Assembly: GCA_963848135.1 (NCBI GenBank)
Contig: CAWKCK010000017.1
Coordinates: forward strand, 372,001 to 436,000
DNA length: 64,000 nt
Origin: an uncultured delta proteobacterium
GTDB taxonomy: Bacteria > Desulfobacterota > Desulfobacteria > Desulfobacterales > SG8-13
Direction of reading: 5' to 3'
Shown here in pieces: positions 52,901-58,900 of this stretch (position 1 is the first letter of the stretch; the number at the start of each line of letters is the position of its first letter). A program made the position numbers.

Positions 52901-55900
52901 CAACATTTGCGAAAAAATTGGAGCAGGCCCGTTGAAACTCCACCCGCAACCGTTTCTCGACCCCGGTTTCGAGTACACCGCTTTTGAACGTGCCGCCGTG
53001 GTCATCCTGCCGGTCCCTTACGAAGGCGGTATCAGTTACGGTACCGGCACCGCCCGGGCGCCTGAGGCGATAATCGCCGCTTCACACCAGTTGGAACTCT
53101 ATGACGAGGTGCTGAAGCGCGAGTCTTTCCGCATGGGAATCGCTACGGTTATGCCGCCGGAATTGCCCACAGACCCTGCAGACGTGCAGGCGGCAATATT
53201 CCGCAGCGCCGCTGAGCTGATCGATCAAGGTAAATTCGTGGTCCTTATCGGCGGCGATCATTCGATCAGCAATGGCTTTGCCCGTGCCTTGCACGCAAAG
53301 CACGGTCGCTTGTCCGTTATTCAACTCGACGCCCACTCTGATCTGCGGGACACCTATGAAAACAACCGCTTCAGCCATGCCTGTGTGATGTCCCGCATTC
53401 GTGAACTGACCGGCAGCACCCTTCAAATCGGCATAAGAAGCATGTCCGCACAAGAGGCGCAGCGGATTGAGCGCGAAAATCTGGCGGTATGTACCATGTC
53501 GATGTACCGCAAGGGCGACTTCGATATCGATGCAGCCCTCGATGCACTTCCGGATCCGGTTTTACTGACTGTTGATGTCGACGCATTTGACTGGAGCGTC
53601 ATTCGAAGCACCGGCACACCAGAGCCGGGCGGTTTCTACTGGGATGAAGCGCTGGAATTATTGCGAAAAATTTTCGAGCGTAAAAACGTGATTGGATTCG
53701 ATGTCGTCGAGCTCTCCGCTCAGGCGCATGATACCAACTCGGCCTTTGCCGCTGCAAAGTTGATCTACAAGATGTTAGGATTCAAACTGACAGCCGCCGC
53801 CTGCAAGGGGCCTTTCGACTGGCCTGAGCGGCCCCGGGGAAGCATCTTCTGCTAAAAGGTCAGCCCCGGGGGATCCTCCGTTCAAGCGCGGCGAGCAACC
53901 CTATTTTCAGGGCCGTCGTATAAGACGGACTCTGGAATCAGCCCGCCGACAACGCTTCAAATATCTCTTCGTTTGTCCGCCGAACCGCTTCGGCAATATC
54001 GGCTGCCCCCAAAATCGGTCGACCGATAACGAGAAGGTCGGCACCATTTATCACTGCCTGCGCGGGAGTCGCCGTCCGTTCTTGGTCGTCGGCTTTCATA
54101 TACCAGAGGGGTCTAATACCCGGACAAATTTTTTTAATGGCCAGACCGCGAATCCGGTGAAGGTCGACCGCCGAACAGACAAGATATTCGTACCGCGATA
54201 CAGAATCCATGGCCATCCGTGCGACCATTTCAACCAAATCACCGCCCTTGTAGTAACGGTTGAATTCCCTTTGTTCCATGGAGGTCAGAATCGTCACACC
54301 GGCCATATGGTCGCGTGGCAAACCATATTTCGTGGGATCGTAACCCGACGTACAGTGGACCGTTGTGATGTCTGCACCGGCAGCAAGGTGCATCGTCAAG
54401 GACTCTGTCATTGCAGTGGGAATATCGTAAAGTTTAAAATCGAGCATGACTCTGCCGTAGGATTTAATATCAGTCAAAGCATTTAAACCATGCTCGAGAA
54501 TGCTGCGACGGATCTTGTAACCCCATACCAAGCCTTTGGTCTTGCTCATGATCTCACAAGCCTGATCCCATGCAACGTGGTCCAGTGGTAGGATGATTCT
54601 ACTGTCCATCTGCCCCCCCATTCAATGACCTCCGGCAAAGCCGAAGGAATGGCTTATTGAGAATAGACCATAAACGAAAACGATGCCGACATAAAGATCT
54701 TTGTGTTCCTTCTCCTCTTTCAAAATAATCGATTGAAATAATGGACTTTTGAATGATATAAGGTATATTTTATCAGGCATATCCGACAAATAGCGTTCGC
54801 TTCCTGACAATGGGGCCTTATGAATATTGGATTGCAACAACAGACGATACCCTCTGGAAAATATTGGATTGGAGCGACCGGCCCGATTAGGCTCCAGTCT
54901 TTTCTGGGAACCTGCGTGGGGGTCGCCGCGTATGATCCTCAAGCGGCTATCGGTGGGATGATTCATCTGCTACTGCCCGAACCGGTTGGGTCTGGATCAG
55001 AGCAGCCCGACGCCCGTTATGCCCTTACCGGTATACCTCTGTTCCTCAATGAGCTTTATCAAGCCGGAGCGACCCGGGACAACTTGACGGCCGTTATTGC
55101 CGGTGGCGCACTGGTGGGTCCACTGAACACCACCGATCTGGACTTGAATATCGGCGGCAGAACGGCAGAAGTGGTCAACACGCTTCTGGCCGAAGAGGGC
55201 ATCACCATCGCTCACTGGGAAACCGGTGGTTTTTTCACTTGCAGCTTGAGCCTCGACATGTCGAGGTTGTCTTACCACATCGAACCCCTCGGCCGAGAAG
55301 AAACCGGCGACGTTGGAACGGACCAGCCCTCCTCCCTGGAAGATATACTGCTGGACATGGAAAAGATTCAACCGATTCCGCAGGTGGCCCTGAAAATTTT
55401 GCGCATGATCGACGCCGGATCTTACGACATCAAAGCCATTTCCGAAGAAATAAAAAAAGACCAGGTCATTAGTGCCCGGACAATCCAACTTTGCAACTCG
55501 GCCCTTTTTGCAAAGAAAAACAAGATTGAATCCTTGGACCATGCACTCGTCTTTCTTGGAGAAAATCTGTTCGTTAGGATGATCATATCGGCAGCGGTGG
55601 AGAATTTCTTCGATACGTCGATGCGGGGCTATTCACTCTGCATGGGCGGCCTCTTTCATCATGCCGTCGGCACGGCGGTAATTGCCGAAAAAATCGCAGA
55701 TTACACCGGAGCTGCCGAACTTTCCACAGCCTACACAGCTGGATTGCTGCATGATATCGGTAAGGTGGTTCTCGATCAGCACATTGCTTCGGCCTATCCG
55801 CTGTTCTATCGTAAAATCAATCGAGAAGACGAGCTTTCGACCCGGGTCGAAAGAGATCTATTCGGCATTGACCACACGACTATCGGCAGCACGCTTGCCG

Positions 55901-58900
55901 ATTTGTGGTCTTTCCCCGAGTCGCTGAAAAGCATCATCGCCTACCACCACGAACCTGAAAAGGCACCGCAACATACCAAGCTGGTGCATATCGTCTACCT
56001 GGCCGATCTTCTCATGGCCCGATTCAATACCGGCATAGAGCTTGAGGGAATGGGCGGCGGCTCCATTGAAGATCGGCTGCGCCGGGTCGATCTTGCCCCC
56101 GGAGACCTGACAGCCATCGTCGATCTCATCCCCCAGGCACTTTTCAGCACCGATACGGAAGCGGAAGCATCAGGGTAAGAGTTATGCATCTGAGTAATCT
56201 CCAAAAAGAAAACCTGCGCCAACTCCCAGGAGTCGACGCCATTCTTGAGATCTTAAAAGGCGCACCCTTCTTCGATGACATACCGCACACCGTCTTGATC
56301 CGCGCCATCCGGTCAGCCATCGAGGAACGACGGCAATCTATCATCCAAGATGATGGCAAACCGTTAAGCGACAGCCTTTCCGACCAGTCAATCACGACAA
56401 GTGTCAAGCGGTTCGTCGAGCGCGCATCGACCCTGAATCTGCGTCGCACAATCAATGCTACCGGAATCGTGGTTCATACAAACCTGGGCCGGTCACTTCT
56501 GGCCGAAACCGCTATTGAGAACATTATCGAAGTAAGCGGCAGGTATTCGAATCTGGAATTCGACTTAGAAAAAGGAAAACGCGGGTCTCGTTACGCCGCC
56601 GTCGAAGATATCATTTGCGAAATCAGTGGCGCCGAATCCAGCATGGTTGTCAACAACAACGCCGGCGCCGTATTGTTGGCGTTAGAGACTCTCTCCAGGA
56701 ATAAAAAGGTCATCGTATCCAGAGGCGAGTTGGTGGAAATCGGCGGATCTTTCCGTATACCGGACGTTATGGCCAAGAGCGGTGGGATTTTGTGTGAAGT
56801 CGGTACCACAAATCGCACACATCCCAGGGATTATGAAAACGCCATCGACGAGCAAACGGCCCTACTATTAAAAGTACATAAAAGCAATTACAGTGTTGTT
56901 GGATTCTCCGCAGAAGTGCCCCTGAACGAACTCGTCGAGCTGGGCCATAAACATAATCTTCCGGTCATGGAAGACCTTGGCAGTGGAACCTTTGTCGACT
57001 TTTCACGCTACGGTTTGATGAAAGAGCCGACTGTCCAGGATTCCGTCGCTGCCGGTGCCGATATCATCACATTCAGCGGTGACAAGCTTCTCGGCGGTCC
57101 CCAGGCCGGTTTGATCATCGGCAAGCGTGATTATATCGACCGCATAAAAAGAAACCCGATCAATCGCGCGCTGCGAATCGACAAGATGACGCTGGCGGCC
57201 CTCGAAGTCACGCTCCGGCTCTATCGGGATCCGCAAAAAGTGGTCCAGACGATTCCCACTCTGCGCATGCTGCTGCAACCGATCGCTGTTCTTGAAGAAA
57301 AAGCCGCCCGGTTGAAAAAGCAGCTTGAAAAAAGCGGGCAAGAGCGCGTGACAATCCGTTCACTCGATCTGGCTTCCAGACCCGGTGGCGGTTCCATGCC
57401 GATGCTGGAGCTGCCCAGCAAAGGCCTCGGCATAAAAGTGCGCGGAATGTCGGTCAACACGATTGAGAAGGCCATGCGCCGGTATTGCCCCCCCATAATT
57501 GGCAGAATCGAAGAGGACATGTTCATCATGGATATGCGCACCATCCAAGATGACGAACTGGCGCTCATTCAACACGCATTTGATAACCTATTGCAGAAGG
57601 ATTGAAAATGACCCAGGATCTGAAAGAATTGAGACCCGGCATGCCAGAGGCCCGCGATTTCATCCTCTCCAAAGCGCACGCCGAAGCCAAACCGACATGC
57701 AGCCCTACAGTCGAACCGGATGAAAATGATGGACTTGTATCGACCTATCCCCATCTGCTCAGGGGCAAGTCACTCATGATTCGTGCCATGAGCCTCATGG
57801 AGGAGGTTTCAGTTTTCGGCGCTGTCATCGTCGAAATCGATGGGAATCAATCTGAGACAAACGCCGTGTGTGAAACCGTCTCCCAGGACATTCAACTCAA
57901 GGTCGCCCAAGCCGTAGAAACCACTTGCCAGTCTGTTAACGGTTTATGGGGACTTGTCGACAACACCGCATTTGGATGTTTTTTCCCCGGCTGTAACCAG
58001 GCGGAGAGCATCGAGGTGGCCAGAAAGATAAAAAATATTTTGGCTGCAGCCCGCCATCATACCGTAACGATCGGTATCGCCGTATACCCCACGCTCGAAT
58101 ACCACAAAGACCAGATCTTCGACAATGCCGGAAAAGCATTGGAACACGCCAAGTTTTTCGGGGCCGACAGCCTGGTTTGTTTTGATGCCATCAGCCTCAA
58201 CATCAGCGGTGACAAGCTCTATGACAGCGGTAATTACCAAGGCGCCATCGACGAATTCAATACCGCTCTTTTGATCGATGCCAAGGATGCCAATCTGCAT
58301 AACAGCCTGGGGGTATGTTACGGGGTCACCGGAGAATTCAGAAAGGCGCTCGATCACTTTAGCGTCGCAATCACGCTCGATTCCAACGAAGCCCTATCGC
58401 ACTATAACGCCGCCCTTGTTCATCTCCTTCAGGGAGAACGGGACGAAGCCACCACTCACCTCATCGAAGCGGACAAAAGCCCCCATAGATTGCATGAGGT
58501 GGCCCTTCAGTTGGCTAAGCTGTACCTCGAAGACGGCGATTTGGATAAATGCCGGGCATATTTAGAAAAGGCCGCCGCCTGGCAGCCGCAATCAGGCGCT
58601 GTTTACTCTTTGCTTGGGGATTGCTTTGCGGCACTTGGACAGTCCGAAGATGCCGTCGCTGCCTACAAAAAAGCGTTACGGTTGAATGCCAATGATGCGG
58701 CATCGCTCTCTGGCCTGGGCTGGCTTTACACCACTATGGACAAGAATGCGGACATTGCACAGTCGTTTTGCCGACATAGCACCGACATCTCCCCACAGAA
58801 CGGCCTCTACCGATATCGGCTGGGAAGGATTTATTACAAGGACGGTCGATTAGAAGACGCCAAACAAGAGTTTCAGACGGCTGTCGACCTAAACTATGAG

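Follow-up and report, generated by a model that had tools for sequence, protein, structure and literature searches.

The 64,000-nucleotide stretch of an uncultured delta proteobacterial genome analysed here (the window; contig CAWKCK010000017.1) carries a gene that fuses a CheD domain to an HDOD domain. The host has no chemoreceptors, both domains are under purifying selection in its lineage, the gene co-occurs with flagella across the order, and CheD and HDOD genes stay paired in genomes that have lost their chemotaxis (che) genes. HDOD is a widespread signalling domain whose function is not settled; CheD docks on CheC and, to our knowledge, is known only together with receptors and CheC. We put at about even the chance that the fusion is a stand-alone, motility-linked signalling module whose CheD domain docks onto an HD output domain with a di-metal site and governs it, in the manner of CheD on CheC. 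The evidence points to a role in motility control, not selenium metabolism.

Architecture of the fused protein

The fusion reported in the earlier note is real: its reading frame (Table 1) matches the Pfam profiles for CheD at residues 51-153 (E 2e-18, 66.7 bits against a cut-off of 25) and for HDOD at 185-379 (E 1e-47, 162 bits against 22.9), and it holds the only CheD in the window's genome (G000, 98.65% complete). The reported 5-bp spacing to selA likewise agrees with the coordinates, the TAA stop (56176-78) being followed by five bases and then the selA ATG at 56184; the two genes are probably co-transcribed. A promoter scan gave eight sites against 5.1 expected, which is chance level, with a weak site at 54742-54769.

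Table 1. Positions within the window of the fusion gene, its parts and its neighbours
Feature	Position	Strand	Basis or remark
CheD-HDOD fusion gene (family A)	54820..56178	+	452 aa ORF; identical architecture in 54/151 order genomes
CheD-fold domain, residues ~4-159	54829..55296	+	PF03975; structure alignment to 2F9Z_C
Cys32, position of catalytic nucleophile	54913..54915	+	aligned with T. maritima CheD Cys27
His49, position of catalytic base	54964..54966	+	aligned with T. maritima CheD His44
Flexible linker, residues ~160-170	55297..55329	+	pLDDT <50 at 160-167; variable in alignment A1
HDOD domain, residues ~171-445	55330..56154	+	PF08668; putative di-metal site by alignment to 3HC1
selA, selenocysteine synthase	56184..57605	+	TIGR00474, 622 bits, above cut-off; neighbour, no functional part
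Degenerate GGDEF-like + TPR gene	57602..58957	+	GGDEF E 0.009, weak; selA's most constant neighbour
pyrF, divergent upstream neighbour, ancestral block	53938..54621	-	profile matches and locus comparison
gmhA, hemC, cobA/hemD, moaA, remainder of conserved housekeeping block	58961..63832	+	profile matches and locus comparison

The N-terminal domain has the CNF1/YfiH-like fold of CheD, superposing on Thermotoga maritima CheD (2F9Z_C) in a VIA-align structure comparison with Z 21.9 and rmsd 2.1 A over 149 aligned residues, and its Cys32 and His49 fall on the catalytic Cys27 and His44 (numbering from PMC7022378). The conservation of this dyad claimed previously is borne out in an alignment of 138 closer family A members (A2), where the Cys is found in 138/138 and the His in 137/138; among 51 distant family clusters 45 keep the Cys and 48 the His, and the six without the Cys retain the HDOD metal site. 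To call the deamidase intact, as the earlier note did, is thus right for the dyad and not for the third triad residue: Gln26 aligns with Thr21 of T. maritima, and in A2 position 26 is Thr in only 2/138, while position 27 is Ala in 119/138 and Ser in 18/138. Judged from the alignment, Ser27 might stand in for the Thr; in NTAN1, loss of Ser69 lowers activity merely fivefold (PMC7022378). A conserved acidic loop specific to the family (D106) lies beside the active site. No NCBIfam CheD cut-off is reached (best 79.7 bits against an equivalog cut-off of 240), and in a quick CheD tree that leaves out half of family A the fusion sits on a long separate branch with support 100. With the T. maritima CheC-CheD pair the fusion therefore shares fold and dyad, and a helical docking partner is predicted for it as well, but it has an HDOD domain attached, lacks the triad Thr, carries Leu98 and Val99 where the Met-Phe pair for CheC binding would be, and lies outside any che cluster, between pyrF and selA, in a host without MCP or CheC.

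The best matches of the C-terminal domain, which has the HDOD fold, are MmoQ, Cj0248 and 3HC1. Its H281, H311, D312, H352, H376 and H377 align with Geobacter sulfurreducens 3HC1 (E 7e-28), so that five His and an Asp resemble the di-iron site whose ligands are given in PMC12075610 and would form a di-metal site. H311, D312, H352 and H376 are present in all 51 distant clusters; Q188 and Q215 (each in 50/51) and D319 are specific to the family, the invariant Q188 and D319 setting it apart from known HDOD proteins. Identity as an HD-GYP c-di-GMP phosphodiesterase was rejected, there being neither an HD_5 match at E<=0.001 nor a GYP motif in alignment A1. SadB (P. aeruginosa), Cj0248 (C. jejuni), GsmR (X. 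campestris) and MmoQ have the same HDOD fold, several with links to motility, but their N-terminal domain is REC, YbaK-like or missing where the fusion has CheD, and SadB and GsmR, unlike the fusion, lack the full metal site. HDOD mutants show altered motility in Xanthomonas, Campylobacter and Pseudomonas (PMC11004494), and the sole assayed HDOD protein with intact HD residues has weak bis-pNPP activity (PMC4114195).

AlphaFold gives a compact two-domain model. A deeper alignment raised its pTM from 0.65 to 0.85 and the pLDDT of the CheD partner-binding loop (101-110) from 34 to 72, a rise that may have causes other than domain docking. We claim no contact from a mean-field coevolution analysis (138 rows, 82 effective), in which noise at conserved columns was dominant, and an ESM Atlas search returned the family's own automatic clusters only.

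Flagella without chemoreceptors

That the genome has neither chemoreceptor nor CheW, as previously asserted, is upheld by profile and motif searches alike, and CheC and CheA are missing too. Profiles for MCPsignal, CheW and CheC found no match in G000 (in positive controls among 14 genomes they matched in 8, 8 and 4), a receptor-tip motif was missing from the six-frame translation, and a relative's CheA used as query recovered generic kinases only. The earlier note did not mention that the same genome holds a near-complete flagellar cluster, from which the che block is gone, and a stator: motA and motB are intact by the MotB_plug profile and translation, and since the MotA_N profile missed this stator gene the order-wide MotA_N count was not used. 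One-base indels interrupt fliC, flgK, fliQ and fliR but not the fusion, and frame changes also occur in 2-3 of 67 control genes; the flagellum may be decaying, or an assembly error may lie behind the indels.

Counting full-length matches (E<1e-90), 54 of 151 order genomes carry the fusion, in line with the frequency reported before. FliG is found in 49/54 carriers against 33/97 non-carriers (82/151 overall; odds ratio 19) and MCPs in 48/54 carriers (odds ratio 4.5), associations whose Fisher values are overstated because the genomes are kin. Where the two part, the gene occurs in 4/39 MCP-positive, FliG-negative genomes and in 5/11 that are FliG-positive and MCP-negative. Five carriers lack FliG, two of which have FlgI; neither protein was matched in G016, G027 and G045 within the order or in G280 outside it. 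Flagellar genes are present in all 10 receptor-less carriers examined, and FlgI in 16/17 carriers outside the order, a count of carriers alone. Of the 30 genomes scored as lacking both FliG and MCP, only G026, in which FlgI is present, carries the full gene, and CheD-only truncations occur in two more; 33 FliG-positive genomes are without the full gene, by true loss in some (G148, G052, G086).

Against four receptor-less relatives dN/dS is 0.10-0.21 for the CheD part and 0.08-0.10 for the HDOD part, similar to selA and hemC, and it stays near 0.1 across six related genomes without MCP and CheA (dS up to 1.4). Because both domains are under purifying selection in these six, the fusion is no relic in receptor-less lineages. 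Three further such lineages (G003, G026/G094, G083) keep it whole; in receptor-less G009 it survives as a remnant, and G075 and G124 have truncated copies.

The tie to flagella and a pairing of separate cheD and HDOD genes were likewise absent from the earlier note. The two genes abut in operons of the order flgN-cheA-cheR-cheD-HDOD-cheY-cheX-cheB-flgK, and the pair remains after che gene loss in G026 (flgN-cheD-HDOD-HDOD-flgK), G003, G094, G009 and G103; three such remaining pair genes have a dead CheD site, and Q188 is not conserved in the HDOD of the pairs. A second fused family (family B) has CheR and a hybrid kinase for neighbours, and its loci contain no MCP. The HD-domain gene of Geobacter group alpha che clusters, proposed to act in chemotaxis-like signalling (PMC2577667), resembles the pairs as an HD-family gene within a deltaproteobacterial che cluster; in the available part of that paper it is a stand-alone gene restricted to Geobacteraceae, and that part describes no CheD tie, fusion or receptor-less host. 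A literature search, with most subscription journals outside its reach, found no description of a CheD-HDOD fusion, in agreement with the earlier note.

What the fusion may do

On the reading that we favour, cheD and HDOD genes lying side by side in flagellar/chemotaxis operons of the phylum would have fused in one or two events. The HDOD domain would bind two metal ions and deliver the output, influencing flagellar regulation as a phosphohydrolase or as an adaptor, while the CheD domain would dock on its own HDOD domain, by analogy with CheD on CheC, and control it by binding, possibly also by deamidating Q188 or Q215. The earlier claim that this CheD must have another substrate is fair in so far as this lineage offers no chemoreceptor to act on and maintains the gene by purifying selection. 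It is too strong because MCPs occur in most carriers, the triad Thr is absent, the Cys is lost in 6/51 distant clusters that keep the metal site, and in B. subtilis the binding role of CheD outweighs its catalysis (PMC3513319).

A rather unlikely alternative is that the fusion actively deamidates glutamine in another protein of the motility system that is not a receptor (a protein of the switch or of export, a CheY/Hpt partner or the coiled coil of a kinase), with HDOD as its targeting or sensing part. The near-invariant dyad in A2, the acidic loop, the mild effect of Ser69 loss in NTAN1, the setting of family B and a CheB/CheR-PAS cluster of G000 that includes coiled coils rich in Glx all suit it. 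However, some distant clusters and separate pairs have lost the Cys, family A is not accompanied by any candidate substrate gene, and the CheB/CheR-PAS type is found in only some receptor-less carriers; an orphan CheR, considered as partner, was rejected, being missing from G000 and present in G075 without the full fusion. Less probable again is that most carriers use the fusion as one more protein that deamidates or binds chemoreceptors, and that it is left over where receptors were lost. The MCP association, CheA dimerisation-domain matches in all 17 outside carriers (weak in G280) and the decayed copies in G009, G075 and G124 would be expected of it, yet the constraint in the six MCP/CheA-less relatives, the whole genes in the further receptor-less lineages, the tighter tie to FliG and the distribution where FliG and MCPs part all speak against it.

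Most improbable by far is an accessory of selenocysteine synthesis that modifies or regulates SelA. Adjacency is kept, as the earlier note held, in 44/54 order carriers, on the same strand across a 5-bp gap in the window, and both truncated CheD-only genes also sit before selA; its functional reading fails, since selA is present in 149/151 genomes against 54 with the fusion, the block persists where the fusion is deleted (pyrF abuts selA, or another gene fills the slot), and none of 16 loci outside the order adjoins selA. The fusion lies elsewhere in 10/54 carriers, three times within 3 kb of flagellar/che operons, and the TPR gene is selA's steadier neighbour (following it in 32/40 loci of genomes without the full fusion). 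The selA link looks historical, the possibility that the earlier note itself had raised; the slot would be a long-standing site of insertion within a block of housekeeping genes in the order. Family A has no motility genes as conserved neighbours.

More tentatively than the docking module itself, and on balance doubtful, we can picture an undescribed receptor-independent switch in which CheD deamidates a conserved glutamine, either of a di-metal HDOD domain, its own or a sister one, or of a flagellar protein, and thereby sets the motility of swimmers that have no chemotaxis. If true, this would be the first non-chemoreceptor target of a bacterial CheD, and HDOD domains would gain a defined regulator. 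The selenium angle does not hold. This tethered CheD-HDOD pair, strongly conserved and persisting after chemotaxis is lost, would allow questions about both domains to be tested on one protein. The invariance of the Cys among the closer members is, for its part, an argument for real catalysis on something and against a pure docking reading. At least one carrier is cultured, Desulfosarcina alkanivorans (DSCA_61530, WP_155319949.1).

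A CheD-HDOD fusion and its active sites

The fusion ORF, whose protein carries the Pfam domains CheD (51-153) and HDOD (185-379), is followed by the selA start codon five bases 3' of its end, bearing out the earlier note's claim of a CheD-HDOD fusion directly before selA; database names of the protein are automatic annotation. Structure comparison of the predicted model finds a match to T. maritima CheD with Z 21.9 and rmsd 2.1 A; its second domain matches HDOD structures. The earlier note called the deamidase domain intact, and Cys32 and His49 do align with Cys27 and His44 of T. 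maritima CheD, but Thr21, the third member of that catalytic triad (extract of PMC7022378), is Gln26 in the fusion. Among 138 closer members of this family (family A) the following position holds Ala 119 times and Ser 18 times; it is Thr in all 7 proteins of a second, distant fusion family (family B). Given that loss of the matching Ser lowers NTAN1 activity only about fivefold (same extract), deamidase catalysis without the triad Thr is, by analogy, possible. The Met-Phe pair by which B. subtilis CheD binds CheC (extract of PMC3513319) is Leu-Val in the fusion. Five His and one Asp of its HDOD domain align with the di-iron HDOD 3HC1 (ligands from an extract of PMC12075610). Among 51 full-length clusters (50% identity), H311, D312, H352, H376 and D319 are kept in all and Q188 and Q215 in 50, against 45 for Cys32 and 48 for His49, so that the HDOD site is, judged by conservation, the more constrained half.

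CheD and HDOD domains are each already known, and the literature search found no paper with both. Geobacter che clusters include a stand-alone HD gene, with no tie to CheD made in the available extract of PMC2577667, whose supplementary figure S6 may show a cheD-HD pair; the extracts of PMC8396549 and PMC13740483 contain nothing on the fusion. It differs from chemoreceptor deamidases in the triad Thr, in falling outside the equivalog cut-offs and in having no chemoreceptor substrate in its genome, yet may work in the CheD manner.

Coordinates of features in the window, in contigs of the source genome (G000) and in extracted loci (L)
Feature	Position	Strand	Remark
CheD-HDOD fusion ORF	window 54820-56178	+	452 aa
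Degenerate GGDEF-like and TPR gene	window 57602-58957		overlaps selA stop
Insert between lysC and pyrF	window 51248-53855
Flagellar cluster	C4:125000-165000		approximate
motA, motB	C3:203900-205700		intact
One-base indels	C4:125900-126800, 145200-146250, 161490-162890		fliC (several), fliQ, fliR, flgK
Orphan CheB cluster	G000:C17:84187-89256
Hpt-cheD-HDOD-cheY-cheX operon (G103)	L134:5664-8556
cheD-HDOD pairs, MCP/CheA-less genomes	L131:7918-9338, L132:7410-8791, L142:6885-9165		CheD catalytic site dead
cheD-HDOD pair, MCP/CheA-less genome	L137:7497-8674		cut by contig end
CheD-only truncations (G075, G124) and remnant (G009)	L064:7538-8104, L099:3051-3620, L106:7312-7688

Neighbourhood and distribution

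In 151 Desulfobacterales genomes of at least 85% completeness, 54 carry the full-length fusion (E<1e-90; three distant family B fusions and three partial matches left out), 82 FliG, 110 MCP and 149 selA. The selA link that the earlier note saw kept across the order holds as adjacency in 44 of the 54 carriers, but the block lysC-pyrF / selA-TPR-gmhA-hemC-cobA-moaA, with the fusion slot after pyrF, persists without the fusion, and none of 16 fusion loci outside the order (15 of 17 such genomes) adjoins selA, their neighbours being unrelated housekeeping genes, among them polA, ileS, der, alaS and pyrD. Of 40 selA loci in genomes that have no full-length fusion, 32 have the TPR gene after selA, 6 have pyrF abutting selA and 5 have a different gene in the slot. 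The fusion sits at another place in ten carriers, of which one (G076) has it near a contig end and three have it no more than 3 kb from the flagellar/che operon. The tRNA-Sec gene of G000 lies on a different contig from fusion and selA. The insert between lysC and pyrF (pyruvoyl arginine decarboxylase, deoxyhypusine-synthase-like and agmatinase-like genes) is likely a polyamine cluster; it recurs in G152-G154 and is mostly absent from the same site in G151.

FliG occurs in 49/54 carriers (odds ratio 19) and MCP in 48/54 (odds ratio 4.5), both among related, hence non-independent, genomes; of the five carriers without FliG, two are FlgI-positive. The fusion is present in 5/11 FliG-positive, MCP-negative genomes, 4/39 MCP-positive, FliG-negative genomes and 1/30 with neither, that one being FlgI-positive. 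In four genera that include both carriers and non-carriers (g6, g12, g19, g63), all six non-carriers are FliG-negative. Counter to a flagellar tie, a full copy is missing from 33 genomes with FliG, in some because of assembly gaps and in others through genuine loss, pyrF then adjoining selA (G148, G052, G086). In a phylum sample of 251 genomes, family A occurs in 17 outside the order, with FlgI in 16 and a CheA dimerisation-domain match in 17 (counts among carriers only). Two copies each occur in G051 (tandem, before selA), G050, G065 and G184 (L101, L074, L079/L080, L112/L116).

Flagella without chemotaxis

Profile searches for MCPsignal, CheW and CheC found nothing in G000 (98.65% complete) but did hit control genomes, confirming the earlier note's chemoreceptor- and CheW-free genome, and a relative's proteins as queries found no CheA or CheX orthologue. 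Its flagellar cluster, which the earlier note leaves unmentioned, is near-complete. Relatives have cheA, cheR, cheD, an HDOD gene, cheY, cheX and cheB between flgN and flgK (L070, L072), whereas in G000 flgK directly follows flgN, from which we infer loss of the che block from its lineage; cheD beside an HDOD gene is the ordinary layout of that operon in relatives. The indels in G000 flagellar genes, set against relatives, may be decay or assembly error; frame changes also occur in 2-3 of 67 control genes. The genus-level group of G000, G116 and G151-G154, with a stator, flagellar genes under purifying selection and no MCP or CheA, reads by gene content as a case of motility without chemotaxis.

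Locus comparison shows separate cheD-HDOD pairs outlasting che genes in several genomes. G026 has flgN-cheD-HDOD-HDOD-flgK with the CheD catalytic His changed to Arg, and free-standing pairs in G026 and G094 have Cys to Gly and His to Asn; pairs also persist in G003 (site intact) and G009, che genes gone. G103, flagellated and without MCP or CheA match, keeps the operon Hpt-cheD-HDOD-cheY-cheX. In a quick tree the CheD domains of family A group on a single long branch with support 100.

Retention and possible function

No MCP or CheA dimerisation domain was found in the five closest carriers searched (G116, G151-G154; completeness figure for G116 only, 90%), all five with flagellar genes. By our own counting script, dN/dS against G151-G154 (dS 0.44-1.41) is 0.10-0.15 for the whole fusion; its CheD part gives 0.10-0.21 and its HDOD part 0.08-0.10, values similar to those of selA (0.11-0.15) and hemC. 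In this receptor-less lineage the fusion is no relic, and flagellated carriers without receptors also include G003, G026, G094 and G083. A leftover receptor enzyme, for which the counter-cases speak, namely an internally deleted remnant in FliG-positive, MCP-negative G009 and CheD-only truncations with differing end points before selA in G075 and G124 (no FliG, FlgI or MCP), is consequently quite improbable. A SelA accessory, for all the adjacency, is scarcely credible: its place beside selA is most plausibly an insertion site of long standing, and the GGDEF-like/TPR gene is a better candidate than the fusion for a real selA partner.

At roughly even chances, the CheD domain would dock on the HDOD domain, as CheD does on CheC, and control a di-metal HDOD output domain linked to flagellar regulation; it would act by binding and may also deamidate Q188 or Q215. 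Deepening the AlphaFold alignment from 35 to 138 rows raised full-protein pTM from 0.65 to 0.85 and pLDDT of loop 101-110, partner-binding in CheD, from 34 to 72, which suggests that the two domains dock on each other; an extract of PMC13740483, where pull-downs did not bear out a confidently predicted CheD partner, counsels caution over CheD docking predictions. In available extracts, binding outweighs catalysis for B. subtilis CheD (PMC3513319), motility is changed in HDOD mutants of three genera (PMC11004494), and a Desulfovibrio HDOD with intact site has weak phosphodiesterase activity (PMC4114195). A deamidase acting on a separate motility protein is rather unlikely.

Family B loci (L081, L082, L127, L128, L129, L130) run HTH_17-REC, CheD-HDOD fusion, CheR and hybrid histidine kinase (PAS/GAF/HAMP, two REC) and contain neither MCP nor CheA: a candidate receptor-less methylation/deamidation operon with the kinase as candidate substrate. 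The sole methylation genes remaining in G000 are a cluster of orphan CheB, CheR-coiled-coil-PAS and PAS-LuxR with Glx-rich helices. A family of free-standing CheR proteins about 270 aa long, at scattered sites in receptor-less genomes (L151-L159), is deleted from G000.
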